This document shows positions 36,403 through 56,569 of a stretch of 58,128 nucleotides of DNA, one piece after another. The stretch covers positions 125,989,873 through 126,048,000 of the forward strand of contig CM097884.1 in the NCBI GenBank assembly GCA_044892505.1, in the 5' to 3' direction. How positions within the stretch are numbered: position 1 is the first letter of the stretch; every line of letters begins with the position of its first letter. The notes under the pieces are model-generated. The model worked only from the letters and a program-made list of their open reading frames with translations, made no database searches and was not told where the DNA came from. The position numbers and the translations under genes are program-made. The stretch comes from Schmidtea nova. Lineage: Eukaryota.

Positions 36403-39400
36403 CTATACCATCATTATCGTCTTTTCTTCGTATCGTTCTTCCTCTTCTATTTGTTTCCAGAATTCTTTACCTTTCGTTCTTCTTTGAAATTCTTTCTGTA
36501 TCTCCTCTGGTATTTCTATTCCTAGTTTCATGATTTTAATATCTGGCCATTGTATGGCTGTCGCTTTGTTTCTCTTTCTGTATCTCCAATATACTATTAT
36601 GCTTGTCGTCAGTATTCCATATGCTATTAATATTCCTATACTCATTAATCCTATTATTGTTTTTCCACTGTTTGTTTCTCTTTTATTCTGGTTCGCTTTT
36701 ATCTCATTTTGGGTTTGAGCCTCTGGCTTCTTCTCTTTCGGTATTTGACTCTTGACTTTGTTCATTACTTCTTGGGTAGACCAATGGTGGTTTAGTAGTT
36801 GTTTGACGTCATTTTTCGTCGTCTGGTTTTCTACGCCTCCTGGTTCGGTCTGTTGTGATAGTTTCTCTGAGATCTGATATAATCCGCATTCTGGTTTTTC
36901 TGAACCTTTTCTGGTGAAGGTACATATCGCGTATGTCCTATTTACTTCCATTTTCTTTAATTCGACTTTTTCTTTATTCTTTATTTCTTTACAGTGGGTT
37001 AGGTTGTCTTCTTCTACTTCTGGTTTATGTTTTGTCCAACATATTACTTTAACTGTCTGATCGAGTCCTGTTAATGTCAGAGTTCTTTCTGTTTTAGTTA
37101 GTTCTTCTTCATCGAATTTCAGAGTTTCTCCTTTTTGGAATGTCTTGCAATTTTCTATTCCGGGTTGATCTTCTTGGGTTCCTTTCTCCCATATACATAT
37201 ACTTCCTTCTTCATTCATTTGTATTTCTTGTATTTCGATTTCCTTGTTTGTTCGTGATTCGTCGCTTGTCTGAACTTGGTATTCTCTTGGTTCGTTGTAC
37301 CATACCCAGCATATTTTGTTACTTTGGTTTTTTCTCCTTATTGTCATAGCCATTTGTTCTATTCTTATTCCTTTATCGATACGTTTGGACATTGCTATTA
37401 TTAATGCTATGCATACGAAATCTTGTTGGGGTGATACTTCTTCTCTCGTGTTATTTGTGCTTCTCTCCCCTTCTCCTGGTTTGTCCGTTGTGTTTTTCAT
37501 CTGAGTTGCTGGTTGATCTATTGTGTTTTTGATTTCTTTCTTTGTTGGTTTTACTCTATACCATTCAAGTCTAGGCGTTTCATATTTTTGGCATACGACT
37601 GTCTTAGGTAGCCCCGACTTCTTTTCCTTTTCTATTATGCATATCCGATGCATGGTCCCTCCATCCATTTCTTCTATTCGTATTATATCCTGGTCGGATT
37701 TTCGGATTATGCATTTTAGTGGGTTATTTTCTCCAATTGGTTCATCTTCTCTATACCAACATATTTTCTCGACTTCCTGGACATTTATTATTTTTATCCC
37801 TGTCTGTGGGTTTATTGCTTCTTCCCCATTGATTAATGTCAATATTATTGTTAGACCCAACCATTTTGAACTCTGCGGTAGGCTTCTGGTTCGCCTTTCA
37901 TATTTTTTCTCTTCTCCTTTAATCTCTTTTATTTCCTTGTCTTTGTTGTTCATTCCTAGTTTTGCGATTTTTGCTTCTTTCTTATTCCTGGTCGGTTTTG
38001 GTTCTTCTCGTGCGTTTTCTTCCAGTATTTCAACTCCATGGCTTGTATTGTATATATTTGGCCATTGGGTTGCCGATTTCCTTGGGTTTATCTTGCGTAT
38101 CCATATAGCTGATAACGCGATTATTACGGGTATGGTCGCTGTTAATATTCCTAAGCCAATTAATTCTTTGATTTGTTTATTCTCGTCTGTTTGTATAGAT
38201 TTGCTTTGGTTGAACATTATTCCGTATTGTCCTTTTAGTTTTCTCATTAATTGTTCTCGTTCCTCTTGCTTTCTTTTGACTTCTTTGATAACTTCTTCGG
38301 GTGTCCATTTTGCTTGAGGGTCGATTATTATTTTTTCTGCGTCCATTTGTTCATTCGTTTGGCTTAGTTCCCTGAATTCGAGTTTCCTTGTTATTCCTTT
38401 TGATGTCGCGTTTACTGGTGTATAGTAGGTTTCGCATCTTTCTTGTTGGTTTCTTAGTGCGTCCATTATTTCTATTGCGCATACTTCGTACTCGCTATTA
38501 AATTGTAGTTTTTCGATCTTGATTTCTTTATTTGTTTTTCTGCATTCTCTTGATTGTCTTCTTATATGTTTCTGTACTATTATCCAACATATTTCTAATG
38601 TTTTATTCTCTATTTTCCATAATGTTAGAGTTGCTGATGTTTTTCTCTCGGGTTTCGTCGTAACTTCTTGGTTTGTTGGTTGTTTATTGTTTTTAAAGGT
38701 AGTGGTGTACTTCGGTTTTCCTTTGTTTCGTTGTTTCCTTTTATTTTTCCGTGTTAACGTTTTGGTTCTTGTTCCGGATGACGTTGTATATATTCCGCAT
38801 TCTAGGTCGTTTATCGTTATCTGATCATTTTTCTTTACCAAACATATTTCGTAGGTTTGTTTACTTTCTAAACCTTTTATTTGAATCGTCGTTGTTCCTG
38901 TGTTTGTTCGACATTGTGGTGTCGTTCTTTTATTTACTTCTTTTTCGTACTTCCTCCAGCATACTCCTTTCACATTTGGTTCTATCTCTTTTATTTCTAA
39001 TGTTATGTTTACTTTCCGCTTGATTTGTTTATTTCTCTTCCTCGTTCTCCTTCTGAACTTTATTACCTCTCCAGGTTGAAATGTTTTACATTTTGTGGTA
39101 CCTTTCTTGTTCGTTTCTTTTTCTAGTAGGCATAGTTTGTACGTCTTATCTGCTTTTACTTCGGATATTTTAATTACTTTATTCGTTGTTGGTTTTCGAC
39201 TTTTCCTTATTTCGTTTACGCCGATTTCCTCGTTATTTCTCGCCCAACATTTTATGTTAGTATTCTGTGTATCTTCTACTTCTGTTATTGTCATAGTTTC
39301 AATTTCTATCCCTTCCTCTAATCGTTTTATCATTATTAGTATGAGTGCTAAACATAATACTTCCATTTGGTAGGACACTCTTTCGGTTTCGTTTGTGGCA

Positions 39401-42400
39401 ACTCTTGCTTCAGGCCTCTCTATTGTAATTCGTAGGGTTGGTGTTGTTTGCTTATCTGTTGCCTGGGGTTTTTTGTTTTCTGTTCCCTGTGTCTCTGTCC
39501 TTCCACATTTTCCGATGATGTAATCTCCTTTGGGTGACTGTTGTATTGTCATGGCTGCTTTAGGTGTTTGGTATTTTGCACATGCGATTGTGTTGTGTGA
39601 TCTTGGATGCTTTTGTTTTCTAACGGTGCATATTTTGTACCAGGTATTTAGATCCAGGTCGTTGATCTCTATGATTTCTTGCTCGTGTTTTGAGATTCTG
39701 CAATCCATCGGGCTATTTTGTTCCGTGATTTTGTCCTTTTTTGACCAACATACTCGTTCGATTCCTTTTGCGTTTTTTATTTGTATTATTGCCCTTTCTT
39801 CACATGTCATTCCTTGACTTGGATTAATTAACGTTATAATCATTGTTAGTAATAGTAATTCTGGTTTGAAGAATGGTTTTATGGTTGATTTATAACCTGT
39901 TCTTTGGGTGTCATTTTTATCTCCTTGGTCGTTTGTTCCTTGTTCTCTCTCTTCATCTCTTTGTTTTTCTTCTTCACCTTTCTTTTCTTCCTTGTCTCGT
40001 TTCTTGTCTTTTCTCTCGTTTTCCTCTTTATCGGGTGGTTCGTGATCGCTTGAATTTTCTGAGTTGTTACCGTCGTCACTATCTGTGTTGTCATCTCCCC
40101 CTGGCTCGTCGAAAATGTCGTCCTCGACATTGATTTCTTCTATCAATTTTGCGTATGCTAATGTCGTTAGATTACTTGCCTCAAATTCTTGTGTTTCTAT
40201 CTGCTCCGGTATTATTTTGTTAGTGGATTTATATTCTAAGATTTCCCTTTTGGCCTTGATCCAATTGTTGATGTATGTCTTCATTAATTCTTTCCATTTG
40301 CCTGTGTATTTTCCCTCTCTCGGGTTGTTTGTGACTCTTAGATCCTTTCTTTCCATAAACATCTTCAATATCTCTGGCCATTTATATGTTATTAGGGCAC
40401 TTCTTATACACCAGTTTTGGTTATGTTCTGTAAACTCATTAATCTTGAATGCTGGTTCGTTGGTATTCGGATTTATCCACGTAAGTATTGATTCTGTTAG
40501 TTCGACGTTGTTCATCATTGCTAGTACACTGGGTTTCCTGACCGTATCAGTTAGGTAATCTATTTCTTCCTGATTTGAGATTGTTTTAATGAAGTTGACC
40601 ATTTCCCAATTATGTGTTAGTAATGCTACATCCAAAATTGAATTATCTTTATCTGTCTTTCCTGTAAGTCCTGCACCTGCTTTGTATAGTTCTTTTAATA
40701 CCTTTGTTTTCGTTTTGGCCCTTGCTGCAAATACCATAAGTGTATCTCCTTTCTCGTCTACCATATTCATATTGCTTCCGCAATTTAGCATTACTCTTGC
40801 AATTTCCATTACTTTTCTATCTTTGCCATTTCGTAGAGCTCTGTGTATGGGCATTATTCCGTCCTTTGGTAGTAAAAATGTTACTGGCATCTCCTTTTTT
40901 ATAGTTGTTATGTCGTTACCATTGTATGTTCCTTTTGCGTATGCGTGTACTTTTTCAACTAATGCACCGAGTATTTCCAGTGCATGTTTACTATTCTCAA
41001 ATTCCGGTAACAATTCTTTTGCTTTTTCTTGTATCGCATCTAGTCTAGCTTGGTATGGTGCTTCTGCTTTGAAGAGTGGTGTGAGTTTCTTGTTGCTTTC
41101 TCTTTCTTTTTTCTCTAAAACCTGTTTGCATTTTTCGGGATGGTTTAAAATTTTTACTAATTCCTCATATTCGCTTACTATTGTCTGGTATTTCTCGTTA
41201 AAATTGTTTATGTCTTTGTATGTTATTAGTTTGTCAAGTGGTTTCGCACACCATTTCCTAATCTTGTTGAATAAGGCTTCCTTCTCTTTATCGAATTTGT
41301 ATTCTTCTTCATTCTTTGTGATGTTTATGTTTCCTCTATCTAATAAGGTTAGTAATGTCTTCTGATCACAAGTAAATTTCAAAAGGTATCTTAACAGTGC
41401 GTTTTGTCCTTCGCTGTATACTTCGTTTATGTCTAAGACCCATGTATCATCTTCTGGTCGTTTCCATTTGATTAACTTACGGATCGTGTTGCATTTACCA
41501 ATTTTGATGGCCTCTTTGATAATGTCTCCTTTAACTAGTTCGTCTATCTCCCAAGTGGAGTTAGCTATTATGTATTTCAGCATTGGTTGGTGAGAACTCC
41601 ATATTACGTGATTTAGCACTGTTTTATCTTCTCTATCTCGTTCTGTCCAACTGAAACGGGCTTTTATCAGCAGATCTACCATTTCTTTATCCGCTTGGTA
41701 GATTGCTGCTGTCATTAATGGAGTTTCTTGTTCACGATTCCCCACGTCCAAGTTTTGGTTTGTTTCCTTTGCGATTTTTAGGAATTCTTTTGCTCTTTCA
41801 ATGTTTTTACACTGAATCGCATTATGTAAGGCTGGTTGTCCTCCTACATCTTTTAATAAGAGTATTTCAGGGATTTTTATCAATAATTCAGAAATAATTG
41901 GTTCGGTTGGTAATCCTTGTGCGTAACGGCTAATTATGTGTCTAATGTCCCTTGATATGCCTGCTTCGTCTCTAACATGCCATCTTCCCATTATCTCTCT
42001 CGCCTTCAATAGGATTTCTTTATTTCTGATTTCTTTTTGCCTTATTTCTGTTTTGTCGTCTTCGCTGGTGTTTGCTCTGAGCATGTTTATCCTGGCTGTT
42101 TGTGATCTGGTTATTATTCGATTCTCTGGTGTTGTAGTTATCGTTTTAGGCACCTTCTTACATCTGCAGGTGTTTACATATATGGGTCGTATTAACGGTC
42201 GATTTATTAGCTTAACTTTGACATTGTTGTCCTTTTTGTATATAATTTCATAAGGTCCTCTTCCAGGTCTTTGGAGTTTCTTAACAGTTCCTGGTATTAT
42301 TTCGGGAGTTTCTATTATCACCCAATCTCCTGGTTTTAGGTCGTTCGCTTTAACATTTTTCTTCTGGTCGTGTAAATCCTTATAACTTTCCTGATAAAAT

Positions 42401-45400
42401 TTAATGTTGAGTTCTGCCGTTTTCCATATTTCCTGCATCCTTTCTTTGAATTTGGTTACGTAGTCGTCGTCTTCCATATATTGCGATAATGGTGGCTGGT
42501 ACTCCAAATCTATGGGCATGTTGCATTCTCTGCCATACATAAGTTGAAACGGGCTTAGTTTTGTTGCGGCATGTATCGACATTCGGTATGCCATTAAACA
42601 TAATTTTATGTATTCATCCCAGTCAGTTTGGTGTCTGCTGACGTAATTTGATAACATTCTAATCAATGTGCCGTTGAATCGCTCCGTTTGTCCATTCGTT
42701 TGCGGGTGATATGGTGAAGTTCTCAATTTCGCTATTCTGAAATAGTTCGTCACCTCGTTTAATAACTCACTCATAAAATTAGTTCCTTGGTCTGTGAGTA
42801 TTTGTTTTGGAGTTCCATATCTGCAGCATATTTCTTCCACTAGAATTTTTGCTACGGTTTTTGCTTTTTGATCTTGCATGGCAAATGCTTCCGGGAATTT
42901 CGTCAGGTAATCCGTTATTACCAGTATGTAAATGTTTCCGTTTAAGCTTTCTGGTAATGGTCCTATTACGTCCATTGCTATAGTTGTCATTGGCTCTGCT
43001 GGTATCGGCATTGGTTGTAGCGGGTTCTTCCATTTCTTCCCACTATCCTTTCTAGTTGCGCAAGTTAGACAATTTTTAATCCATTCTTTTATATCTTCTT
43101 CCATTGTTCGCCAATAATATTTTTGTCTCATCCGATTTATTGTCTTTTTCTCTGACATATGACCTCCTAATTTCCCATCATGGTACTGGATCATTATCTC
43201 TTTCCTTCTGTTTTCCGGTAAACACATCAATCTCTTTTCTCCGTTTTGTATTAACAACCATCCTTTATTTATTATGTAGCGATGTTGATATTTTCCTATA
43301 TGTTCCTTTAGTTCCTTATTATCCTTGAATACCTCCATGTTTCGAGATGTTAGGAACTCTATGATCTGTCCCAATTCTTTGTCTTCCTGTTGATCTTTCT
43401 TTAACTCACTAAAGTCCAAATCTTCCGCTATTAACACACAAATTCGTTGTACATCAGGATCGGTTAATTCCGGAAATGTCAGTCTTGACATACAATCTGC
43501 ATTCGCATTCGCTTTTCCTGATTTAAATTTTATGTCCGGTGAGTACTCCTGTAACTGCATTGCCCATCGCATTAATCTACTGGATGTTTCCTTATGTTGT
43601 CCTAACCACACAAGCGGTTGGTGATCTGTGGTTATACAGATGATGTGTCCCCATAATAAATATTTAAAGTGTTTAATTGCTAGTATAATTGCTAACGCTT
43701 CTCGCTCGGTTACTGAGTAATTTTTCTCATGCTTTTTGAATGTCCGGCTATAATATCCGATTACACGTTCTTTTCCTTCATCGTCGTATTGTCCTAATAC
43801 TGCTCCTGCTGCATATCCGCTTGCATCCGTTGCAAGTAGGAATGGCTTCTTGAAGTCTGGGTGTACCAATATGGGTGCGGTTATCAGTTTATCTCTCAAT
43901 GTTTCAAAGGCTGTTTGCTGTTCATCTCCCCATATGAATGATACATCTTTCTTTACCAGCTCCTGTATAGGTTTTGCAATTCCGGCGTAATCTTTTATAA
44001 ACTTTCTATAATATCCACATAATCCAAGAAATTCTTGTATCTGGGTTATTGTTTTTGGTACTGGACATTCCTTTACTTTGTCGATATTTCTAGGATCCGG
44101 TTCTTTTCCTTTTGCTGACACTATATGTCCTAAAAATGTTACTTTCTCTTTCGCCCAATCACACTTGGATGGCTTGAGTTTTAACTTCCATTGTCTAAGT
44201 CTAACGAATACATCTCGAATATCCTGTATGTGTTGTTCAAACGTGCTAGAGTAGATTAATAAGTCGTCGATGTAGACCATACACTGCTTTATTCCATGGG
44301 TGACAAAATTCATGCATCTCTGAAATGATGCTGGTGCGTTTGTTAATCCAAAGGGCATCTTTCGAAATTGATATAGGTCTCTACCGATGGTAAAGGCAGT
44401 TTTCTCTTTATCTTCTTCCTTCATTTTTATTTGCCAGTATCCGCTTTTCAGATCTAGTGATGTAAAATATGCTGCTCCCTGTAATGTTAGTAGCATTTCG
44501 TTGATGTCTGGTAATGGGTAAGTATCTCGTTTTGTCACTGTATTCAATCTTCGATAATCTATGCAGAATCTCTGTGTTCCGTCTTTCTTCTTTACCATTA
44601 CTACTGGAAATTGCCAGGGTGAACAACTTGGTTCGATTACTTCTGCATCCAACATTTTCTTCACTTCTGCTTCTGCTACTGCTTTCTGTGCTTCCGCTAA
44701 TTTGTACGGCCTTAATGCAATTGGTGTTTCATCTGTTAATGGTATTGTATGTAGTGTGACATCACATGTTCCTAGATCCAAATCGGATGCTGCAAATATA
44801 TCCTTATACTCTATCAGGAGTTTTTCTAGCTGCTTCCTTTGATCCTCATTTAATAATTCACTGTCGATATTCCAGGTTGGTTCTTTATCTTTCTCTGCCC
44901 CTGCTATTGGTAGTTCGATATCCATCATTGGGGTTAATTTACCTAATCTTTCGTTTTCGTAGATTATTTTATCCTCTTCGTCGAAATTTACCACGTTTAT
45001 TGGGATTTCTCCATTATCATTTATGTTGACTAATCCTCTTGCCATTGGCAACGCTTTTCTTTTCTCGAATCTCTTACTTGGTTCGAAAATCATATCGCCT
45101 TGGATTGTCGGATCTATTTTTACGTAACATATTTTTTCCTTTCTTGCCGGTATTATCATTTGCTTTGAACTTGTCACTTTGGCTTCTATTGCGCATATTT
45201 GTCCTGTGCGATCCTTTAGTCTCATTGTTCCGAGGTCGATTACAATCTCTTTAAATAGTGCTGGCATCAAATCTGTTCCGATAATGCAAGGTACGCTTAA
45301 TGCTGGTATGACAGCTACGTACGTATCGATTTCCGTATTTAAGTGGCGTATTTTTACCCACCATCTTCCTGCTACTTCCACAACTTCTTTGCTACATGCA

Positions 45401-48400
45401 ATTACATGGACGTTTGTCCTTTCTATATCTCGTCTTTGCTCTTGTGGTATCCATTTGATGTCGATGGCGGAAATGTTTGCTCCAGTGTCGATCATTGCTT
45501 CGATTTCTCTTCCGTTAATTTCTATTGTCGTGGTTAGTACTGGGCCTGTGTTTGATGACATTACTGCGATCGTATGTGCGTCTCCTTGTGGATCTACACT
45601 TCTACATCTTCTCATTTTATAATCTTCTGGTATCATGGGGTATACATTTGTCATTGGCAACATTTGCATCGTGCTATTTTTTCCTCCTTGTAGTGGTTCT
45701 TGATACATTGTTGGCGGAGGTGCGTAACATTTCCATGCGTCGGCTGGATTCTTTTCGATGTATCGTGGTGCTTGGTTCTTGTACACTTGTCCTCCCTTAT
45801 AGTCGTCGTCGTCATCATCGTCGTCACTCGAATCATTTTGGGTTTTATATCCTTTCACCCTCTCCCATAAACCTTTTCTTTCTCTCTTGAGCTGTTGTCT
45901 TGCTTGTTCGTCATTCATTATCTTTTTAAATTTTCGTCCTACTTCTTCATCTGTTCCCTTCATTTTTGCTAGTATCTTTAGGAGTCTTTTTATTCGATGG
46001 ATATCTTTTGAGTGTCCATGCAACACCATTGTTTTCGCAAGGAATGGTAAAAACCCTACTATCATTTTCCAATTCACTTTCTTTTCTCTCTTGTATATAT
46101 CGAAACACGCTAACATTTGCGTTATTATTACTCTGACGATTTGGATTATTAATATGACCCCCAGTATTCCCGCCATCATTTGTCCAAATATCAGGAATCT
46201 TCCCCACATTGCTTTCATCATATTTTCTGTGGCTTTCTTGAAATGTGCTGGTGACAACAACAGTTCATAATTCGGTCCTTCTCGATAATCCGTTCCTCCC
46301 GTTATTGTTACGATATTTGATAGTAATGCTTCTCTTCTCGCTGGAAATAATATATTCTGCCTTGCTGCTTCTAAATCCTTTGGACTATATATTCCGTTAT
46401 TTGAGACATCCACGTCGCTGAATTGCCTATCCTTTGACAACTGCATTAGCTCGAATTCTCTTGGTGCTATCACTTCGGATCTTCCTGGGAACATAACCCA
46501 TTTACCATCTGGTTTCTGATAAAGTGGTCCATACGCATTACTACAGTTGAATGGATTTGGTTCAAACCCTGGTGGATTGATGATTCTCGTCACTGGTTGA
46601 ACGTATCGTACTTTTCCTTTGTAGTCGATTTCTAACTCGTTTGTACAGGTTCCAGGTTTCAACTGTGTTGTTGCTGCTAACGATGCGTGTGTCTTTTCAC
46701 AAATGTATACATACATTGCTTCTCCAACCACTCTTCCGAAATGTCCTTCTCTCAGTGGTAATAATGGCATCGCACTATCTGGATTCGTAATTGCTACGGC
46801 CAACTTTGTCTTTAATATTTCTCGATTCAGTATACAATCATTGTTTATCAGATCGTAGTACACTTTTTGTAATGAGGCTTGTCCTCTATGGAATAGGAAA
46901 TCCATTTTATTATTCACATATAGGTGTAGTTTGATATCCATTGTGTCGATTTTGGGTTTCGCATTTGGCACTTCTTGTTTTGACACATATATTCCTGGAT
47001 AATTCGTTTCGTATACCGTTGTACTACACTTAAGGGTTGCTTTCCCTTTTATGAACCTCATTCCTACATCCTGATTTGTGGTTATCAACACTGTTGGTGT
47101 GGCTCTCATCTCTATCCGTCTTTCTCTATGATCTGGTTTCAGTTGTCTTTTATTCTCTAAAGCTTCCTTGAGATGCTTTGCTCTAGCTTTGTCGTCATCG
47201 TCTTCTTCCTGGAACGTTTTTCCTTGGATTTCGTCGAACTTTGCTCCTTGTAGCAGTTGTAATTGACATTCGTTCACCTTTGGTTTGTACACTAATGTTG
47301 ACATTCCCGTTTGACACATGCTCCTGTCGATTTTACACATGGATAACGTTTTCATTTCTCCCGTTGTGGGTTCGAAGAATGCTTCGTAGCTTTTTAGTTC
47401 GACTATATACGTATCCATCACCACTAAGTTGGTTGCGAGTGTTCTTAACATCGGGTACGTTTCTCCTTGACAATATCCTTCTCCTCCCGTAATCCGTCCT
47501 GCTACATAGTACGTCTGTTGCATCATCATTCCTGGCTTTCCTTTTATCTTGATTTTATCTCTTGTTGTTACTTCTCCATGTTTAAACAATGCTTCGCAGT
47601 CCTCTCCTTGTAACACGATTGGTTCTCTTTCCGTTCCTGGCATGACAATTGCTGAATAATGTCCTCTCCCGCAGTAGAATGCGAATCTCGTCTTCTGCAC
47701 CTTACATTCATTTACCATTGTCTTTATGAGTTCTGCTTCTTGATACACGTGGTACCATTGTTCCTTTTTAATCTTTTGCAACTCTACTGGAGTTGCATCT
47801 TTGCATTGCTCCGTGCCTCTCAATGAATACTTTTCTCCTAACTTCATTTGGTCGCAATCAAACACTTCGAACGCTGTTGCGCTATCGGTGCTAATCATCC
47901 ATATCAACATCATCATTATTATAGAACTCAAATTCATTGATGACTTCGCGTTTCTTGTTCCTGCTTGTTCTTTTCCTAACTCTTCCAATATTTTTTCGAA
48001 TTTCTTTTTCATATTCTTGGCTTGTGTTTTCTTCTGGTTAGTTTTTATAAATGTTTCCCATCCTCCTTTGTTAATGACGTAGGGTTCTATTTCTCTAGCT
48101 ATAATCTTTGCGGTAATTTTTATATGTCTCTCTAATGCAGTGGGTTTTGGTCGACCTCTACTCAGTGTCAACAGATTGTAGATCGTGTATGCAATAGCTA
48201 TTACGTATTTGTTATCTGTTTCCGCTCCTTCTGTCAATTTCTTTATTAACATAGTGGTTCCTTGCCAGTCTAAATGATTTGACTTCGTCTTTTCTTTTAT
48301 GAATTCCGGTAAGATGGGTGCAATTGCGCTGTGCAATGACTTCGCCTTTTCGCTTATCTCAGTTATACGCCAGTATTTTTTCAATTCCGGATCAATTATT

Positions 48401-51291
48401 GCCAATATTTCCATTATTGTTTTCGATATCCATTCCTCACCTTGACATATTGGTGTTGTCTCTTTTTCTTTTATCTCCGCGATTTTATTTAATTTCTTTA
48501 AACATACTTCCCATTGATCTTGTCTCTTTTCATCCTTATTTCTGATGACTACATTTGCCGGATCTGTCTTGGGTCTACCTCGAGGTCGTCTATCCATTCC
48601 TGTACCCGTTTCCACAAATCTTGTTGCTCGTCCTGTTTCTTCCGTGACATCTCTTGGTTCGTTAGCTCTTTCTTCTAACCATCTTTCCATTTCTTGGGTT
48701 AATTGTACATTTTCGACATTCGTCCCTCTCGCTTCGTCTTCTATCAAATCGTTTATTTCTTCTATTATTATTTCTTCTTCGACTTCTGTTTCTCCGGGGT
48801 TGGTTACTTGTATTGTCGTAGGTAATTCTTGTATTCTTTCGAAAATGTTATCGTCTTTTTCTTTTGTTAATTCGGTTAATTCTTCTATCATATCGTCGCT
48901 ATCCGTTAAAATTTCGTCCACGTCGTATGGTTGTGGTGGAGTCATTTCTCTATTCCCTCTGGGTGTTGTCTCAGATCGTCTTGAACTTGTCCCTGGTGTT
49001 AGTACTGATTTCATCGGGCTCGGCGTACTTATACTTCCGTGTGGTTTATGGTTTTCTTCTTTACGTTTCAATGGTTGACCTGCTATTGCTTCTACTGTCA
49101 AGGTATTCATGAGATCTAGTTGTGCTGGCGTTATTCCGATTTCCAAACTGTTATCTAATGATCGTCCTTGGTGTTGTAAATGGAATGGTGGTTCGTATCT
49201 CAATTTCTTTTTAATATCTCGAATTTTTTCTGCTATTCCTACCCACAATTCTTCCTTATCCTTGTTTGGATATATTATTCTTAAATGCACTTTTTGTGGA
49301 ATTTCCTGCGAGAATTCTTGATTTCTCCATTTCCTAATTACGTGGTCTAGTTGTTCCGGGCACCATTCGTTAACTCTTTTATATTCTGCGATTGCCTTTG
49401 CCACTTTACGCAAGCATGTTATATCTTCTCCATTAACCACGAAAAAATCTGCGAGACCTTTTATTATTTTTCTCTTACCGTGCGCATTAGTTTTTAATAT
49501 TTCGACAAATTCCTCCGTTTTTTGCTTTTCCTTTTCTAACCATATGGCCACTGTTTCTGGTCCATCTAGGTCTATTGGCGTAGCTTTCCTTGTCACCATG
49601 CAAACCCTTCTCATTTCTGGTTCGCAGTCGTCTTCCATTCCTCTTTCATATTCTTCTTCATATTCCCCTTCCTTTGGTACCCAACATTTTCCTTTCTCGT
49701 TCCATTGTTTTTCTACGGGTGTTCGTCTTCGTCTGTTGAGATTGAGTTCTTCTAATACATTTTCCCACTCTGGCCAAATTCGCCAATTCCGATAGATGTC
49801 TACTATTTGTTGTAATTTGCGCACAACTTCTTTCCGTCGTTCCCGTTCTCTTTTCTCATCTTTAGCAGTTTCTCTGGGTGTATCGTCCATTCTGATAACG
49901 TGGATGGTTTGGTGATTATCCCATATGCCGATTTTATATAGTCGTCTCTCATCGTGATCCCATAATACATGTTCGTTATATTGTATGATTATGTCGTCTT
50001 CCCATTCGTCTTCTGGTTCTCTTTGCACTAGTGTCTCGTTGATGACATTTATTAATTCTTTAATGGTGCAATCCGCTACTACTTCTATTTCTTTGGTGTC
50101 TTCATTAGGCAATTCCACTGAAATTTTTAGGTCTGTTATTTTCCCTTGTCTGAACATTGTTTTTCCCATTTTTGCGATTAATTTGTCGTGTGAGATTTGT
50201 GACCATCTCGTGTGACTTGTGTCACGTATGCACTCAATACATTGTTTCAATTTCTCGTATTCGCTTCTCATTAACTCCTTTCTATGTTTTTTGACTTGTG
50301 GTATGATTTGCTCTATCAGGGAATTTAGATTCTTTCGTAAGACTCGTTCTTTCTCGTATTCTAACCGAGGTTTTATTCTCCTTTCAAAGCACGTGTTTGC
50401 TTCCCTTGCAACTTCTTGTAGGTTCTCTTCTTCCTTCTCATCACATATTGATAACAGAGTTATTTCTCCTGGCCATATACCTGTTTCTACTAAGTGCGTT
50501 CTTTTCTTTACGAGTCTATTCTGCGAATAGATGAATTTGTTTTTGTATGAGCTCCCTAGTCTATCCTCTACCCATCTGTAGATATCGTCTGTAAATGGAG
50601 TTTTGATCCAGATTCTTGGTGTAGATGTATTTATTATTATTGAGATGGTGTAATTGAGGAGTGGTTCCTCTATTAATTTCCCTACGTATCGATTTAACAT
50701 GTCTACTTCCCGGTCTTGTAACCATTCTTTGTAGTTCATTTGTAATAATGCTTTCATGAATTTCCGATATTGTTTCTTGTCCATGAACTCTTCGTTATAT
50801 ATCACTTCTAGCGAGTTATCTAGTAATTTCTGGATTTCATCTACCTTTATCTGTGTAGGTTCTGAGGTCTTTATTACTTCTCTCTCTTTATTTTCGTCTT
50901 CGGATTCGTTTAATATGTCTCCTGCTAGGCTACTGATGTCGTTATCTTCTTCCTCATCGGAAAACTCTCTGGCGGTATTTCTTAACATATTAATATGTGC
51001 TATTTGGTTCGTTTCTCCTTGTATATTCTTCGTTGGTTCTGGTTCGTTTTTGTCAATCTCTGGTGTTTGTTCACTCTTGTCCTCTATTACTTCGACTTTT
51101 CTCATTTTCTTTTCCAACTCGTCTATCTCTTTCAAACGTCTTCTTATCATTTTTCCTTTAAATATTCGACTGATTCGGGTTTCGTGACGCACTGGTGGTG
51201 GAATTTCTTCTGATTCTATTTCTTTGATTCTCATCACATTTCTTTTTGTCTCTGTTACTCCCATGTTTTCCCATATATCCGTTAATTTCAA
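36403..51291 (-). CDS. pol: 4,962-aa polyprotein: UBL, Bcl-2-like, Env, PR-RT-RH-IN, ankyrin, two FN3-like membrane proteins
   Basis: Uninterrupted 14.9-kb frame. PR IDTGA (D at ~45488), RT LDLKSGY and YIDD (44263-44274), RH TDAS/ERE/TDH, IN HHCC plus D,D(35)E and GPY. The track start is TTG; the frame is continuous with gag except for one TAA. Confidence 0.97.
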   Translation of the reverse strand: MKLTDIWENMGVTETKRNVMRIKEIESEEIPPPVRHETRISRIFKGKMIRRRLKEIDELEKKMRKVEVIEDKSEQTPEIDKNEPEPTKNIQGETNQIAHINMLRNTAREFSDEEEDNDISSLAGDILNESEDENKEREVIKTSEPTQIKVDEIQKLLDNSLEVIYNEEFMDKKQYRKFMKALLQMNYKEWLQDREVDMLNRYVGKLIEEPLLNYTISIIINTSTPRIWIKTPFTDDIYRWVEDRLGSSYKNKFIYSQNRLVKKRTHLVETGIWPGEITLLSICDEKEEENLQEVAREANTCFERRIKPRLEYEKERVLRKNLNSLIEQIIPQVKKHRKELMRSEYEKLKQCIECIRDTSHTRWSQISHDKLIAKMGKTMFRQGKITDLKISVELPNEDTKEIEVVADCTIKELINVINETLVQREPEDEWEDDIIIQYNEHVLWDHDERRLYKIGIWDNHQTIHVIRMDDTPRETAKDEKRERERRKEVVRKLQQIVDIYRNWRIWPEWENVLEELNLNRRRRTPVEKQWNEKGKCWVPKEGEYEEEYERGMEDDCEPEMRRVCMVTRKATPIDLDGPETVAIWLEKEKQKTEEFVEILKTNAHGKRKIIKGLADFFVVNGEDITCLRKVAKAIAEYKRVNEWCPEQLDHVIRKWRNQEFSQEIPQKVHLRIIYPNKDKEELWVGIAEKIRDIKKKLRYEPPFHLQHQGRSLDNSLEIGITPAQLDLMNTLTVEAIAGQPLKRKEENHKPHGSISTPSPMKSVLTPGTSSRRSETTPRGNREMTPPQPYDVDEILTDSDDMIEELTELTKEKDDNIFERIQELPTTIQVTNPGETEVEEEIIIEEINDLIEDEARGTNVENVQLTQEMERWLEERANEPRDVTEETGRATRFVETGTGMDRRPRGRPKTDPANVVIRNKDEKRQDQWEVCLKKLNKIAEIKEKETTPICQGEEWISKTIMEILAIIDPELKKYWRITEISEKAKSLHSAIAPILPEFIKEKTKSNHLDWQGTTMLIKKLTEGAETDNKYVIAIAYTIYNLLTLSRGRPKPTALERHIKITAKIIAREIEPYVINKGGWETFIKTNQKKTQAKNMKKKFEKILEELGKEQAGTRNAKSSMNLSSIIMMMLIWMISTDSATAFEVFDCDQMKLGEKYSLRGTEQCKDATPVELQKIKKEQWYHVYQEAELIKTMVNECKVQKTRFAFYCGRGHYSAIVMPGTEREPIVLQGEDCEALFKHGEVTTRDKIKIKGKPGMMMQQTYYVAGRITGGEGYCQGETYPMLRTLATNLVVMDTYIVELKSYEAFFEPTTGEMKTLSMCKIDRSMCQTGMSTLVYKPKVNECQLQLLQGAKFDEIQGKTFQEEDDDDKARAKHLKEALENKRQLKPDHRERRIEMRATPTVLITTNQDVGMRFIKGKATLKCSTTVYETNYPGIYVSKQEVPNAKPKIDTMDIKLHLYVNNKMDFLFHRGQASLQKVYYDLINNDCILNREILKTKLAVAITNPDSAMPLLPLREGHFGRVVGEAMYVYICEKTHASLAATTQLKPGTCTNELEIDYKGKVRYVQPVTRIINPPGFEPNPFNCSNAYGPLYQKPDGKWVMFPGRSEVIAPREFELMQLSKDRQFSDVDVSNNGIYSPKDLEAARQNILFPARREALLSNIVTITGGTDYREGPNYELLLSPAHFKKATENMMKAMWGRFLIFGQMMAGILGVILIIQIVRVIITQMLACFDIYKREKKVNWKMIVGFLPFLAKTMVLHGHSKDIHRIKRLLKILAKMKGTDEEVGRKFKKIMNDEQARQQLKRERKGLWERVKGYKTQNDSSDDDDDDDDYKGGQVYKNQAPRYIEKNPADAWKCYAPPPTMYQEPLQGGKNSTMQMLPMTNVYPMIPEDYKMRRCRSVDPQGDAHTIAVMSSNTGPVLTTTIEINGREIEAMIDTGANISAIDIKWIPQEQRRDIERTNVHVIACSKEVVEVAGRWWVKIRHLNTEIDTYVAVIPALSVPCIIGTDLMPALFKEIVIDLGTMRLKDRTGQICAIEAKVTSSKQMIIPARKEKICYVKIDPTIQGDMIFEPSKRFEKRKALPMARGLVNINDNGEIPINVVNFDEEDKIIYENERLGKLTPMMDIELPIAGAEKDKEPTWNIDSELLNEDQRKQLEKLLIEYKDIFAASDLDLGTCDVTLHTIPLTDETPIALRPYKLAEAQKAVAEAEVKKMLDAEVIEPSCSPWQFPVVMVKKKDGTQRFCIDYRRLNTVTKRDTYPLPDINEMLLTLQGAAYFTSLDLKSGYWQIKMKEEDKEKTAFTIGRDLYQFRKMPFGLTNAPASFQRCMNFVTHGIKQCMVYIDDLLIYSSTFEQHIQDIRDVFVRLRQWKLKLKPSKCDWAKEKVTFLGHIVSAKGKEPDPRNIDKVKECPVPKTITQIQEFLGLCGYYRKFIKDYAGIAKPIQELVKKDVSFIWGDEQQTAFETLRDKLITAPILVHPDFKKPFLLATDASGYAAGAVLGQYDDEGKERVIGYYSRTFKKHEKNYSVTEREALAIILAIKHFKYLLWGHIICITTDHQPLVWLGQHKETSSRLMRWAMQLQEYSPDIKFKSGKANANADCMSRLTFPELTDPDVQRICVLIAEDLDFSELKKDQQEDKELGQIIEFLTSRNMEVFKDNKELKEHIGKYQHRYIINKGWLLIQNGEKRLMCLPENRRKEIMIQYHDGKLGGHMSEKKTINRMRQKYYWRTMEEDIKEWIKNCLTCATRKDSGKKWKNPLQPMPIPAEPMTTIAMDVIGPLPESLNGNIYILVITDYLTKFPEAFAMQDQKAKTVAKILVEEICCRYGTPKQILTDQGTNFMSELLNEVTNYFRIAKLRTSPYHPQTNGQTERFNGTLIRMLSNYVSRHQTDWDEYIKLCLMAYRMSIHAATKLSPFQLMYGRECNMPIDLEYQPPLSQYMEDDDYVTKFKERMQEIWKTAELNIKFYQESYKDLHDQKKNVKANDLKPGDWVIIETPEIIPGTVKKLQRPGRGPYEIIYKKDNNVKVKLINRPLIRPIYVNTCRCKKVPKTITTTPENRIITRSQTARINMLRANTSEDDKTEIRQKEIRNKEILLKAREIMGRWHVRDEAGISRDIRHIISRYAQGLPTEPIISELLIKIPEILLLKDVGGQPALHNAIQCKNIERAKEFLKIAKETNQNLDVGNREQETPLMTAAIYQADKEMVDLLIKARFSWTERDREDKTVLNHVIWSSHQPMLKYIIANSTWEIDELVKGDIIKEAIKIGKCNTIRKLIKWKRPEDDTWVLDINEVYSEGQNALLRYLLKFTCDQKTLLTLLDRGNINITKNEEEYKFDKEKEALFNKIRKWCAKPLDKLITYKDINNFNEKYQTIVSEYEELVKILNHPEKCKQVLEKKERESNKKLTPLFKAEAPYQARLDAIQEKAKELLPEFENSKHALEILGALVEKVHAYAKGTYNGNDITTIKKEMPVTFLLPKDGIMPIHRALRNGKDRKVMEIARVMLNCGSNMNMVDEKGDTLMVFAARAKTKTKVLKELYKAGAGLTGKTDKDNSILDVALLTHNWEMVNFIKTISNQEEIDYLTDTVRKPSVLAMMNNVELTESILTWINPNTNEPAFKINEFTEHNQNWCIRSALITYKWPEILKMFMERKDLRVTNNPREGKYTGKWKELMKTYINNWIKAKREILEYKSTNKIIPEQIETQEFEASNLTTLAYAKLIEEINVEDDIFDEPGGDDNTDSDDGNNSENSSDHEPPDKEENERKDKKRDKEEKKGEEEKQRDEEREQGTNDQGDKNDTQRTGYKSTIKPFFKPELLLLTMIITLINPSQGMTCEERAIIQIKNAKGIERVCWSKKDKITEQNSPMDCRISKHEQEIIEINDLDLNTWYKICTVRKQKHPRSHNTIACAKYQTPKAAMTIQQSPKGDYIIGKCGRTETQGTENKKPQATDKQTTPTLRITIERPEARVATNETERVSYQMEVLCLALILIMIKRLEEGIEIETMTITEVEDTQNTNIKCWARNNEEIGVNEIRKSRKPTTNKVIKISEVKADKTYKLCLLEKETNKKGTTKCKTFQPGEVIKFRRRTRKRNKQIKRKVNITLEIKEIEPNVKGVCWRKYEKEVNKRTTPQCRTNTGTTTIQIKGLESKQTYEICLVKKNDQITINDLECGIYTTSSGTRTKTLTRKNKRKQRNKGKPKYTTTFKNNKQPTNQEVTTKPERKTSATLTLWKIENKTLEICWIIVQKHIRRQSRECRKTNKEIKIEKLQFNSEYEVCAIEIMDALRNQQERCETYYTPVNATSKGITRKLEFRELSQTNEQMDAEKIIIDPQAKWTPEEVIKEVKRKQEEREQLMRKLKGQYGIMFNQSKSIQTDENKQIKELIGLGILTATIPVIIALSAIWIRKINPRKSATQWPNIYNTSHGVEILEENAREEPKPTRNKKEAKIAKLGMNNKDKEIKEIKGEEKKYERRTRSLPQSSKWLGLTIILTLINGEEAINPQTGIKIINVQEVEKICWYREDEPIGENNPLKCIIRKSDQDIIRIEEMDGGTMHRICIIEKEKKSGLPKTVVCQKYETPRLEWYRVKPTKKEIKNTIDQPATQMKNTTDKPGEGERSTNNTREEVSPQQDFVCIALIIAMSKRIDKGIRIEQMAMTIRRKNQSNKICWVWYNEPREYQVQTSDESRTNKEIEIQEIQMNEEGSICIWEKGTQEDQPGIENCKTFQKGETLKFDEEELTKTERTLTLTGLDQTVKVICWTKHKPEVEEDNLTHCKEIKNKEKVELKKMEVNRTYAICTFTRKGSEKPECGLYQISEKLSQQTEPGGVENQTTKNDVKQLLNHHWSTQEVMNKVKSQIPKEKKPEAQTQNEIKANQNKRETNSGKTIIGLMSIGILIAYGILTTSIIVYWRYRKRNKATAIQWPDIKIMKLGIEIPEEIQKEFQRRTKGKEFWKQIEEEERYEEKTIMMV
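36538..39866 (-). other. Polyprotein C-terminus: two tandem signal peptide / FN3-like repeat / TM units
   Basis: Signal peptides at ~39811-39866 and ~37825-37863; TMs at ~38098-38163 and ~36587-36660. Seven modules follow C-W-x-C-x-I-x-I-xx-L-x4-Y-x-I-C-x-C-xx-Y/F. Both tails carry QWPxI. Confidence 0.7.
40430..41850 (-). other. Ankyrin-repeat region (two clusters) downstream of integrase
   Basis: GQPALHNAI, QETPLMTAA, DKTVLNHVI, GIMPIHRAL, GDTLMVFAA...LYKAGAGL. Confidence 0.88.
42170..45540 (-). other. pol: Pol core: protease ~45210-45540, RT ~44116-44740, RNase H ~43481-43850, integrase ~42170-43190
   Basis: All catalytic residues appear intact. The PR-RT-RH-IN order defines Ty3/gypsy. 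Confidence 0.97.
46020..47937 (-). other. env: Env: chuvirus/Monjiviricetes-like (class III-type) fusion glycoprotein embedded in the polyprotein
   Basis: Signal peptide MNLSSIIMMMLIWMISTDSATA then FEVFDC..YSL..C; NNDC.LN; G..GRVVGEAMY..IC; C.NEL..DY.G...VQP.TRII..C; GIYS..DL...ILFP; furin-type RERR (47116-47127); TM ~46102-46197. Confidence 0.8.
48040..48520 (-). other. Bcl-2-like domain
   Basis: BH2-like EPYVINKGGWETF (cf. WI..NGGW..F), preceded by a helical, degenerate BH1-like DNKYVIAIAY. Confidence 0.72.
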
Positions 51292-51450
51292 TTTTACTGA
51301 TGGTGCATCTCCTATTTGTAAGAACGCTTATCTGGGCAGTTTCGTTACTCCTGGAATCATCTGGTTTACTTTATTGAATAGTATTTCCACCTTTTCTTTT
51401 GCGTTATATTGGAATCGAAACATATGGTCGTTGGGCATGATTACCATCAT
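49084..51450 (-). other. Three ubiquitin-like (beta-grasp) domains at ~51220-51450, ~49888-50130 and ~49084-49290
   Basis: Each starts with a hydrophobic strand, x-P-N-x-D/H, a second strand, then T/K-I/V-x-x-L/I. The best example is LKISVELPNEDTKEIEVVADCTIKELINVI...LYKIGIWDNHQTIHVI. Confidence 0.6.
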
Positions 51451-53310
51451 TCCTTTTTTCCAAATTTTTCTTCTCTCTTCCTGGTTTATCTCAGTTTCCC
51501 CTTCCTTTTTTATTTCTTTTTCTACTTCTTCATCTTTTTGTACTATTTCTTTTAGACTTTCGTTGTTGGTTGGATTCGGATTTATTTCTAATGTGGTTTC
51601 TTTCTCGCGAGTGTCTGTTTGGTTTGTTGCTCTTAGCATGTTAATTCTTAGAGGTTGTCGCTCTCTTTCTTGCTGTTTTTGTTCATCCTCTCTTTGTATT
51701 CTTGCCCATTCCTGAGCGTGTCGTGCTTGACTTTCTCGATTCAATCGTTCATTTTCGCTTTCTATTTTTCTCATCATGCTAATTTGCTGTTGATTGGTTT
51801 GCGAATTTCCTCTCGTCGTATTGTTTATCAGTTCCGTCAACCTTTGAACTTCTTGCATCAAATGTATTTCTTTGGTGGTAGTTTTGTTCTGATTATTATT
51901 ATTGTTGTTTTGTTGGTTTCCATAATCTGGTCGGTTTACGGTATTTGCTTGATTTCCGTAATTTGGTCGGTTCCCATTACTCTGCCAGTTTCCTCGCTGA
52001 TTACTTTTTTGTCCGCAATTTCTTGAATAGTGACCAGGTCGTCCGCAATTAAAACAGATTATCGTAGAACATCTACTCTCCGAGTGTCCTTTAACTCCAC
52101 ATTTTCCGCAATTCAAATTTTGATAGCATTCTTGTTGCCAATGTCCCAATTTTCCACATGTTTTACATTGTTTTGTTTGTCCTTGAGGATTGTAATTGTT
52201 TTGGTTTCTAAAGTTTTGCACTTTATTTCCTTCGTTCCTTCGTTGAGGGGGTGGTCGGTTTAATTGTTGCGAATTTGGAATGTGATTGTTGAGATTTACT
52301 TCTGGTTCGATTTGCGCCGTGTCCATGGCTAAATAAATTCTACCCTCACTTCCTATCATGTGCAGTTCGAATCTGTTAGCTGTTTCTAGTGCTTGGTCTA
52401 GGGTTTTACATCCTTGGCATCCCACTTGTGCTCTTATGTCGGGTCTTCTTAGTCCTCCTATGAAGATAGCTGCCATTAACTCCTCGTTTATTGGACCTCC
52501 ATCCTTGAATACCGATTTTGCTAATTTTTTCAATTCGCTCGCGTATACCGCATTAGATTCGTTCATCTTTTGTTTCCTCATTGAAAATTCTATGAATGCT
52601 TCGCTTAGCACTTTATTTATTCCAAATGTTTGTTGGAAAAAGTCCTTTATCGCTGGCCAGTCTGCAGGTGGATTGGTACCGTTTTTTGCTTCCAAATATA
52701 GGTCCAATGCGCTATCTTTCAAATATAACTGTATTCTACTTGCTGTTGTCTCAGCTTTCCATTTGCATACTTCCACGAATATGCCAAATTCCTTTAGAAA
52801 AATTTCTAATTTACTCGCATCTCCGTTAAACGGTTCTCCTGAAAATTTATCCTTTATTTCTTCTCTTGGTTCACCCATTTCAATTCCGCTGTCTTGAGTT
52901 ATTTTACTTTCGTTTCCTCTTGTTTCTAGTTCGTTGTTATGTTCGTCTTCTGTTCCACTCGAGCTTGAATCGCTTTCAGTTTCTCTTATTACCACGTTAT
53001 CTGATATTATACTCTCGTTATCACTCTCGTTGGTTTCTACCTCTGGTTCTACCTCGTTTTCTACTTCTTCGATATTATCGTTGTTAGTTTCGTCGCTTTC
53101 TATTTCGCTTGTTTGGTTCTCCTTGGGTTCCGCTTGGTTCTCTTTGTTACTTGAGCTGTTGCTTACTACTGACAATTTATCGTTTTCGATAATTGATTTA
53201 TCTCTTATTATTTTCCTCGCTTTACTCCCTTGTGGGTTTTTGTGGTTATCTTTGCCGGCTTTCTGCTTTTTTGTTGGCTTTATTGCGACACTCTTTGCTC
53301 CTTTTCTCAA
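51328..53310 (-). CDS. gag: Gag: acidic N-terminal extension, capsid-like domain, three CCHC knuckles
   Basis: FNGDASKLEIFLKEF capsid start; CKTCGKLGHWQQEC, CGKCGVKGHSESRC and CFNCGRPGHYSRNC (52015-52167). The track start is TTG; the first ATG is ~143 codons in. Confidence 0.93.
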   Translation of the reverse strand: MRKGAKSVAIKPTKKQKAGKDNHKNPQGSKARKIIRDKSIIENDKLSVVSNSSSNKENQAEPKENQTSEIESDETNNDNIEEVENEVEPEVETNESDNESIISDNVVIRETESDSSSSGTEDEHNNELETRGNESKITQDSGIEMGEPREEIKDKFSGEPFNGDASKLEIFLKEFGIFVEVCKWKAETTASRIQLYLKDSALDLYLEAKNGTNPPADWPAIKDFFQQTFGINKVLSEAFIEFSMRKQKMNESNAVYASELKKLAKSVFKDGGPINEELMAAIFIGGLRRPDIRAQVGCQGCKTLDQALETANRFELHMIGSEGRIYLAMDTAQIEPEVNLNNHIPNSQQLNRPPPQRRNEGNKVQNFRNQNNYNPQGQTKQCKTCGKLGHWQQECYQNLNCGKCGVKGHSESRCSTIICFNCGRPGHYSRNCGQKSNQRGNWQSNGNRPNYGNQANTVNRPDYGNQQNNNNNNQNKTTTKEIHLMQEVQRLTELINNTTRGNSQTNQQQISMMRKIESENERLNRESQARHAQEWARIQREDEQKQQERERQPLRINMLRATNQTDTREKETTLEINPNPTNNESLKEIVQKDEEVEKEIKKEGETEINQEERRKIWKKGMMVIMPNDHMFRFQYNAKEKVEILFNKVNQMIPGVTKLPR

Positions 53311-53920
53311 CTGGATTACTTTTATATTATCAATTTTCTTGTCCTATCTATTATCGTTTTTCTGATTCTTCTTGTTGTTTGATTGATTTGATTGATTTGT
53401 ATATCTAAAATACAAAGGTCCTCAACGATACCTTATTGTTATCGTCGCGCTTTTATTCCCTTTCTTTCGGGATTACTTATTACTGGGTTTTCATTATTTC
53501 CCATTCTCAGATTCCCCTTTATTTTTAGTCTATTTAAATTATCTATAGACTGGTCACAATTATCTATTTATGTCGTAATAATTATCTATGTTTTATCAAA
53601 TCCATTACTTTTCCCACAGTTTCCCAATTTATTGGTCGCTCGAGCGCTCTAATTCCCTGAGTCTTTCTGACTCGTTTATCATTATTTTATCATCTTTATT
53701 CATTATTCCCTGCTAGCAATCGTTTTACTCATTCTGCCGGTTGTTCCGGTCAGCTCGAATTTTTATTATTCTCCTTGCATGCTTTACTTAAGGTTGCATA
53801 ATCAGCTTTACTCGCATTTCTTAACTACTAGTGCGCACTATTCTAAATCTCGTCGACGATTACACTATGGGTCTATATTCCCTCGGTTACTATTTATCCG
53901 GATATCTCTATAATCCACTA

Positions 53921-54684: not shown

Positions 54685-55188
54685 TTACAAATAAACTATA
54701 ATTTTTTCATTCACGGTAAAGTTGCACATCGGACACCGGTCACACTTGCTGGCACAGATCTTACAAAAACGGAAATGTCCGCAAGGTAAAAACATAATTT
54801 GTATCTCGTTGTTTTCACATATATAGCACTGTCGGTATTTTTTCGCTGCTTCTACCCCTTGCGCCCTCCATCGATTGTATGTTGGGGTTAATTGTTGTTC
54901 TATTTGTCTGCATCTAATGTTTAGCTCCGCATTCTCTAGTCGTGCTCGGTACCATTTGTAGCGGGTTTTTATGTCGATTTTACTTGTTCTTTCTGTTATC
55001 TTTATTAATTCATCTGTTTCCTCGGTCTGTGTTGTGGGTTCTTGAAATTCAATTTCTCTAAATCGGTTTATTTTCTTGCCAATTGTTGCTAATGTTTCGT
55101 TTTCTGTGTTGAGAAATTCTTCGATTTCCTTCAGTTTTTCCTCCATTTGCTGAATAAATAATCGTTTTAACTTTGTTGTTTTTATCAT
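54685..55188 (-). CDS. 167-aa coiled-coil plus IAP/MDM-type C-terminal RING protein upstream of gag
   Basis: CYICENNEIQIMFLPCGHFRFCKICASKCDRCPMC matches the IAP-type RING pattern; no BIR motif seen. Confidence 0.85.
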   Translation of the reverse strand: MIKTTKLKRLFIQQMEEKLKEIEEFLNTENETLATIGKKINRFREIEFQEPTTQTEETDELIKITERTSKIDIKTRYKWYRARLENAELNIRCRQIEQQLTPTYNRWRAQGVEAAKKYRQCYICENNEIQIMFLPCGHFRFCKICASKCDRCPMCNFTVNEKIIVYL

Positions 55189-55502
55189 TTTTAAAGTAGT
55201 AATATGTCTCGTTTTGTGAATTTAATATTTATTTAAAGTAGTAATATGTTTCGTTTTGTATCTTTTAGCATTTATTTACTCTCCCCGTGTTTCCGAAAAT
55301 TGTCGTCCCGACAAATTGTTTATGCATGCATTCGATTTTTATAACTTTACTTTTATTTGCTGTTGTGTTTGTTGTTTATTTTTGTACATCATTTAGATTT
55401 AATTACCAATTTTCTGTTTCTATTAAATTTATTCACACGACACGAGCACTTTAAACTTCTCTGCAGATTTTTCATTCACCTTTTTCCGATAAAACGAAGT
55501 TG

Positions 55503-55520
55503 ATCCCGGCTGAGCCCCCA
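55503..55520 (-). promoter_or_regulatory. Primer-binding site, tRNA-Pro type
   Basis: TGGGGGCTCAGCCGGGAT lies 6 nt inside the 5' LTR and is a 16/18 match to the classical tRNA-Pro PBS TGGGGGCTCGTCCGGGAT. Confidence 0.85.
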
Positions 55521-55961
55521 AATTTATGCTGGGTTCATGGACGGGTTGGTAAAGAGGCTAATGATGGCTAGGGATCTCCCATCCATGATCATGCATAAAA
55601 TGTCGTAAGTTACACTCGAGCGCCCTTGATTATTTCCCTTGATAACCAAGTTGGTGATGCGCAGGGTGATTAAACAATGAGGGGCAGGTGAGCACTATTG
55701 CTAGGACTACTCCCCCTTTATGTTTACGGGTTCACGCGGCCGTGGAAGGACTTACGCAATTATTGTTCTATTGTGTGTGTGATGTCATGTAATTATCAAA
55801 AACAAAATTTAAGCACAACGAAACTACTAATACGATAATACTTAAGCTACTCCTTTCGTTGTGTGACGGGTAATTTAAATTTAATTAAATGAATTAGGTA
55901 ATTGAAGGAAAACATCAGAAATAACAACAACAAAACAAAACGAGTAAAAATTTAATTGAGT

Positions 55962-56569
55962 TCAAATTCTGACATCGTATTTTATTTGTAATATAAATTC
56001 TTTGAATATTCCTTCAGGAGGGAACATCTCTGCTAACCACTCGGCTTCCGACATTTCTGCCATCGTGGTTACTTGTGTCCGCAATTGCTGGGAAAACAGC
56101 TTCCTTTGGCGACGGCGCTTGGAGCCGATTCGTTTTCGCTTATTCGGTTTTCCGGCGGGAGTTGGTGCAGTGGTGGTTTCCCCCCGACTCTGCGTCGTTG
56201 TTGCCTCGAGTCCATCGGTGTCTGTACTGATTGAGCAGGCCACTTTCCGTTCTCCTACCCAATTCTGGTAAGTAATGGGTCGGATTTGTGCTTTTAATTC
56301 GGACTCGATAAACGAAGTCGTCACCGAATGGAGGCATCGGCGCAACTCAATTTTTGTTGCTTCCCATTCGGTGCGATAATCGTCAGCTGTCCTTTGAGCC
56401 CTTTCTGTCCGACTCATCTGCTCCTTCATGCGAGCTGGTGCGAACCAGCTGGTCCGTAAATGCTGAATCTGAGCTTCTGCTTTGGCTCGTAAGGCTTTTT
56501 CTTGGTTTAGCTCCTTTTCCAATGCTCGGCGGGTTCTCCACGCCTTGTCCAATTCTCGCTGTTGGCTAG
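55962..56569 (-). CDS. LTR-encoded ORF B, 5' LTR copy
   Basis: Identical translation to the 3' LTR copy. Confidence 0.55.

Follow-up and report, generated by a model that had tools for sequence, protein, structure and literature searches.

We observed that the envelope gene (env) in the window, a 58,128-nucleotide stretch of Schmidtea nova DNA, lies between the gag and protease of a retroelement in an open frame that runs on into pol, that it encodes a glycoprotein with a gB-like fold, and that it is fixed across copies of the element. We consider it likely, with a probability of about 0.65, that this env, which belongs to a young Burro-type Ty3/gypsy element of high copy number, is translated as a segment of a single polyprotein threading through the membrane of the endoplasmic reticulum (ER). 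The gag-env-pol arrangement is already published, and the gene order adds nothing to what is in print. The first-pass annotation of this DNA had given a place 3' of pol as the established one for env, which is incomplete, and had implied that the order seen here was new; the same layout was described for Burro in 2019 and more widely in 2026 (PMC6431247, PMC13524379).

A Burro-like element in the window

Self-BLAST and sequence inspection placed a Burro-type LTR retroelement of ~29.1 kb on the minus strand of the window. Its LTRs are 99.83% identical (3013/3012 bp) with TG...CA ends, and a 4-bp target duplication flanks the element when the window is joined to the neighboring stretch L021. These ends, the target duplication and the gypsy-type order of protease (PR), reverse transcriptase (RT), RNase H (RH) and integrase (IN), found by Pfam and in the sequence, place the element in Ty3/gypsy. 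Its main features are as follows.

55527..58128, minus strand: 5' LTR, extending 410 bases beyond the window end (self-BLAST, neighboring stretch L021)
55503..55520, minus strand: primer-binding-site-like 18-mer, 6 nt inward of the 5' LTR (sequence)
54685..55221, minus strand: accessory ORF with a C-terminal IAP-type RING finger (PF13920, E 4e-11)
51328..53343, minus strand: gag with three CCHC knuckles (PF00098; knuckles read from the sequence)
36403..51327, minus strand: 4974-aa open frame, spanning the pre-env region, env, pol and the C-terminal membrane modules (ORF list)
49918..50130, minus strand: weak ubiquitin-like (Ubl) domain (PF18036, E 0.057, below cut-off)
45259..45528, minus strand: aspartic protease, DTG at 45489 (PF00077, E 2.4e-7)
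42703..44595, minus strand: RT, RNase H, integrase zinc finger and core in Ty3/gypsy order (PF00078, PF17917, PF17919, PF17921, PF00665)
41560..41829, minus strand: ankyrin repeats, the best of two stretches, the second group lying downstream (PF12796, E 2.5e-15)
34449..35828, minus strand: TRAF-like accessory ORF with RING, TRAF zinc fingers, coiled coil and MATH (PF22486, E 8e-21; PF02176)
29407..32419, minus strand: 3' LTR, 3013 bp (self-BLAST)

The 18-mer resembles what we take to be the 3' end of tRNA-Pro, and the 6-nt gap between it and the LTR end (55503-55526, minus strand) is wider than usual. No clear purine tract was seen ahead of the 3' LTR in the window sequence. Pfam gave no BIR match in the RING ORF or elsewhere among the 12 frames scanned, and no match in the PR-RT spacer, where a dUTPase-like domain was sought. 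The window copy carries a stop after gag that is absent from 15 other copies, 14 of them open at this point and one broken elsewhere (a sixteenth copy, without the marker motif, is not counted among the 15). A full polyprotein from the window copy would therefore need read-through. In 12 of 16 other copies, no stop separates a CCHC knuckle from the env start, whereas this stretch is broken in the window copy. The ORF of open copies reaches ~5650 aa.

We set the element against Burro (GYPSM1) of planarians by its published description, in which an in-frame env lies between BCL2 and protease (Arkhipova & Yushenova 2019, PMC6431247). Both are ~30 kb long, with three CCHC knuckles in Gag, followed in order by a BCL2-like domain, an env with matches to mononegavirus-type glycoproteins, PR-RT-RH-IN and ankyrins; both carry MATH/TRAF cargo and are present in hundreds to thousands of copies (PMC6431247). 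Burro has a Ubl ahead of the BCL2-like domain, where the window element gives a Ubl match below cut-off. The Burro ORF is given as ~5000 aa, compared to ~5650 aa in the open copies here. The Ubi2/SUMO-like and dUTPase-like domains of Burro were found using HHpred. In the window element, MATH/TRAF sits in a separate downstream ORF, the RING ORF is without a BIR match, and two membrane modules follow the integrase that go unmentioned in the Burro section of PMC6431247. Burro1 expression and its BIR-RING cargo are covered in PMC13465017 and PMC8532177. On length, ORF, copy number, CCHC gag, BCL2-env-protease order and ankyrin plus MATH/TRAF content, we classify the element as Burro-like, and not as Burro1, since it has RING only and no BIR match.

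The gB-type errantiviruses of Chary & Hayashi (2026, PMC13524379) are GAG-ENV-POL elements of flatworms, nematodes and bryozoans, the nematode cases being credited there to Sacco 2022. Six of them are from Schmidtea mediterranea (Smed_errantivirus_1-6, Platyhelminthes C1a group). They share with the window element the gene order, the gB-type fold, the flanking signal and transmembrane (TM) segments, and furin sites that are not always retained, whereas their listed spans are 14.5-18 kb, compared to 29 kb here. Judged by eye against the env rows of that paper, the window env resembles Smed_5/6, and a second lineage in this genome (see below) resembles Smed_1. Neither single-ORF topology nor post-integrase membrane proteins, which the window element has, are discussed in the available part of PMC13524379.

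Several minor features accompany the coding region. The TRAF-like ORF (34449-35828, minus strand) is intronless and lies downstream of the polyprotein frame. Three further accessory ORFs (32637-33236, 33276-34367 and 35920-36279, minus strand) encode a small protein with a signal and a TM, and two coiled-coil proteins. Each LTR holds a 239-aa and a 173-aa ORF (55962-56681 and 56770-57291, minus strand; repeated at 29842-30561 and 30652-31173), neither with a Pfam match over cut-off. A 32-bp tandem repeat occupies 53907-54098 in the 5' leader.

The Env segment and its fold

Bases 47937-45540 encode aa 1131-1930 of the stop-free 4974-aa minus-strand frame. The segment and its upstream neighbor comprise the following features, among which the topology calls (signal, TM and H2) come from crude hydropathy.

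48013..48450, minus strand: Bcl-2-like domain, immediately ahead of the env signal (profile, Pfam)
47872..47937, minus strand: internal signal sequence with a small-x-small end (hydropathy)
46207..47871, minus strand: class III (gB-like, Monjiviricetes/chuvirus-type) glycoprotein ectodomain with 14 Cys (PF24664, ESM Atlas, AlphaFold model, Foldseek)
47116..47127, minus strand: furin-type RERR in a lineage-specific, low-confidence loop (sequence, model)
46114..46197, minus strand: predicted Env transmembrane helix (hydropathy)
46021..46071, minus strand: H2, a second hydrophobic stretch, helix-kink-helix (hydropathy, relatives, model)
45559..46113, minus strand: predicted cytosolic tail with an acidic run, VYPMI (45645-45631) and a candidate protease site at its end (sequence)

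The signal, Cys-rich ectodomain, TM and subsequent in-frame DTG named in the first-pass annotation were all recovered (hydropathy, 14 Cys, PF24664, DTG at 45489). The spacing of ~170 aa between TM and DTG needs correction, as 209 aa separate the TM end from the catalytic Asp; the earlier figure fits the distance from the end of H2, which was unlisted at that stage, to the same residue (178 aa). The furin site was likewise read correctly at 47127-47116, but of 20 copies only one has RERR; REKR, which is also a furin consensus, is found in the remaining 19. A furin motif is absent from the three other lineages and present in 6/94 stand-alone relatives.

The Bcl-2-like region is weakly matched in the lineage of the window copy. 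A six-copy profile matches Bax/Bcl-xL (E 0.004-0.007) and PF00452 is found in five second-lineage rows (best E 3.5e-5), though not in the window row; the window sequence alone gives a weak match to Bcl-xL (E 1.8). The env signal lies 30-50 aa past the GGW motif, presumably at the place where Bcl-2 proteins have their tail anchor. It occupies the same position in four lineages and in ten outside polyproteins, and the predicted signal-peptidase site precedes an F-D-C / Y-D-C start common to the relatives.

The ectodomain is, according to profile and structure predictions, a class III (gB-like) fusion fold. It matches PF24664 (Monjiviricetes_fusion) with E 5.9e-73, as do all 14 rows aligned across four lineages. 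In the ESM Atlas, the top ranks went to PF24664 and rhabdovirus G clusters (0.96), with a recognition value of 1565 that lies below the tool's 2300 mark. An ectodomain profile retrieved 1879 proteins at E <= 0.001 and reached herpes gB at E 0.004. The AlphaFold model (128 rows; pLDDT 88, pTM 0.67) shows a 48-residue central helix and the class III features of beta-rich domains I-II, a beta domain IV and an arm. Every Foldseek match listed for this model is a herpesvirus gB (best PDB match E 3.1e-14, TM 0.35), with TM-scores that are modest, 0.32-0.39 for most, and an rmsd over 11 Å. The viral fusion fold for which the first-pass annotation had proposed a Foldseek check is thus borne out.

Monjiviricetes/chuvirus glycoproteins and their BEL/Pao-borne copies belong to the same PF24664 family and have in common with the window env the ectodomain cysteines, TM, H2 and Y-P tail motif. 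The viral proteins stand alone, with 600-720 aa and a Met of their own, whereas the window env is embedded in a polyprotein. We considered a BEL/Pao element with a chuvirus glycoprotein and rejected this assignment: pol has no match to Peptidase_A17 or DUF5641, which we take to be the Pfam marks of BEL/Pao pol, and env lies 5' of pol.

H2 bears on the side of the membrane that Pol occupies, as a second crossing would place Pol in the lumen. Hydropathy did not call it a TM in the window and scored it as marginal in one second-lineage copy. Basic residues flank it on either side, and a model built without a membrane shows it as a helix, like the TM. An H2-like motif occurs in 61/94 stand-alone glycoproteins, counted with a pattern that was drawn after viewing 28 of them and has no control. 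The tails of the same set contain hydrophobic-Y-P in 49/94 (shuffles 4.2) and P[TS]AP in 16/94 (shuffles 0.7), motifs that we assume to be of late-domain or sorting type. Because stand-alone glycoproteins have both the H2-like motif and Y-P tails, H2 is, judging from these motifs, inherited from the viral glycoprotein. It likely lies on the cytosolic face or membrane surface and does not cross. The window Env tail has neither PTAP nor PPxY. In the second-lineage Env tail, PTAP stands beside a Y-P motif just ahead of the protease (L024, L026, L031).

Fixation of env across copies and lineages

We surveyed the 1.25-Gb assembly and scored 72 of 3739 first-look candidates, the candidates being shared among lineages. 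The env sequences of all 72 copies are 98-100% identical, and 24 of these copies sit in frames of at least 5600 aa. Among the 20 best copies, 18 have the protease motif in frame with env. Three more lineages are present in the genome, with env ~32-38% identical. Two have frames of 3400 aa and 3070 aa and one is known only from broken copies. The env-to-protease frame is open in the second-lineage copies examined as well, and in the third lineage (3070-aa frames) the protease is in frame with env in 7/8 copies. Outside this genome, env is followed by pol within a single chain in eight proteins, one of which also has gag in front.

Constraint on env was comparable to that on pol. Between two sub-lineages of the second lineage, env had a dN of 0.085, compared to 0.077 for pol, with dS at ~2.2, which is near saturation. 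Among 20 close copies, 79 synonymous and 3 non-synonymous changes were shared, a count biased by the choice of copies for protein likeness. In an env tree of 127 rows (128 minus 8 with low cover plus 7; midpoint root; sampled with a two-lineage profile), 18 embedded envs and one fragment form a single clade with support of 1.0. Since the order is kept across copies, lineages and outside relatives, and since env is constrained like pol, these comparisons indicate that env is a fixed component of the family and not a late insertion. The secondary insertion that the first-pass annotation had held out as a refutation is therefore not what the copies show.

Three further observations were made during the survey. 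Four element copies are spaced ~33 kb apart and may form a tandem array (G000:C1:590844236-590955488). A gag-env-pol polyprotein relative, P0009, is filed under a bacterial metagenome-assembled genome as a hypothetical protein and is likely misbinned animal DNA. A second-lineage element has a downstream ORF (L049:1550-2542, plus strand) with motifs that we assign, as an assumption, to a DEDDh-like exonuclease.

Proposed polyprotein topology and post-integrase membrane modules

The best reading of this anatomy is likely co-translational insertion into the ER with Pol on the cytosolic Env tail, as the first-pass annotation had suggested. In the mechanism that we propose, the hydrophobic stretch that follows the Bcl-2-like domain would open translocation, and signal peptidase would cut ahead of the ectodomain, leaving Gag-Ubl-Bcl-2 and Env-Pol as separate membrane-held chains. 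If the TM stops transfer and H2 stays on the cytosolic face, a second signal after the integrase would make PR-RT-RH-IN-ankyrin a cytosolic loop between two anchors; this second signal supports a multi-pass polyprotein. Flavivirus and hepacivirus polyproteins likewise carry internal signals together with stop-transfer anchors on a single chain, which is cut by host signal peptidase and their own protease. They are likely a working analogue and not kin, as the proteins are unrelated, the fusogens are class II and there is no reverse transcription.

A retroelement whose Pol cannot enter the particle as Gag-Pol must package it in another way. Cut from Gag, Pol would lose that link and would need the membrane shared by both chains to get into the particle. 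The earlier idea that Env tethers Pol for packaging fits and is plausible, with the addition that membrane sharing is then required, and the proposed equal synthesis of Env and Pol would hold only if the RNA is unspliced. The element protease would cut at short I-x-x-hydrophobic sites and so release the other enzymes as well as itself. Such a motif is repeated downstream of the knuckles, on either side of the protease, between RNase H and integrase and behind the latter; the ectodomain contains none. It was defined post hoc on this sequence, which makes the shuffle test circular, and its strict form misses the pre-PR site; we regard the recurrent motif as a fair candidate for the protease sites. 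The presumably trimeric glycoprotein would let particles move between cells. The lineage suits questions of both packaging and entry, as many of its copies have open frames and the chain includes extra surface proteins.

An alternative that we regard as unlikely is that one DNA frame gives several mRNAs, with Env translated from its own message and Gag-Pol, or Gag only, from another, so that Pol is seldom tethered and is not made 1:1 with Env. A large excess of Gag over Pol is normally required, which this alternative would accommodate, and the window lineage has an in-frame Met at the signal start. In the single-ORF gypsy element Cer1, parts of the polyprotein frame are expressed as a spliced product (PMC10309623). 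However, no Met ahead of the hydrophobic core of the signal is conserved across lineages, and the frame through signal, TM, H2, tail and protease is open in lineages ~36-38% alike and in outside relatives, although splicing env out would remove the need to retain this frame.

It is less probable still that Env no longer makes infectious particles and serves as an intracellular assembly anchor or in cell-cell passage without free virions. The furin site is dispensable across lineages, and PMC13524379 calls the entry mechanism of gB-type elements unknown, leaving open how they enter cells without partner glycoproteins. Against this, the whole ectodomain, including the cysteines shared with viruses, is constrained like pol, and a mere anchor would not need an ectodomain. 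Chance capture of a chuvirus-type endogenous viral element by one retrotransposon copy has a negligible probability: of ten stand-alone relatives examined, the closest one with a name is a chu-like virus glycoprotein (P0062), but env is present in at least 72 near-identical copies and in four lineages, is under purifying selection and groups with the other embedded envs in a single clade, which rules this reading out.

Beyond the integrase, the multi-pass polyprotein would continue into two type I membrane modules.

38098..39861, minus strand: module 1, with a signal, four Cys-bearing ~77-aa repeats and a TM (hydropathy, sequence)
36589..37869, minus strand: module 2, with a signal, three repeats and a TM (hydropathy, sequence)

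The seven repeats give weak FN3-type Pfam matches below cut-off. The last module is 85-100% identical (99 scored copies), compared to 98-100% for env (72 scored copies). The second-lineage ORF likewise ends in signal, ectodomain and TM, with a sequence unrelated to the window modules. A literature search that lacked some primary Burro papers did not find this pair of post-integrase membrane proteins described. Judging from their sequences, they may be attachment or host-modulating proteins. A more elaborate and doubtful reading is a multi-pass entry apparatus in which the Env signal is at the same time the tail anchor of the Bcl-2 domain, Pol is looped between two anchors, and the fast-changing post-integrase proteins partner the gB-like fusogen, with herpes gD/gH as the proposed counterparts in attachment. 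If true, this would answer how retroelements with gB only choose a target cell.

In the host flank of the element, we also observed inverted-repeat (MITE/foldback-like) elements at window positions 16325-17587, 20152-21182 and 22548-23997.
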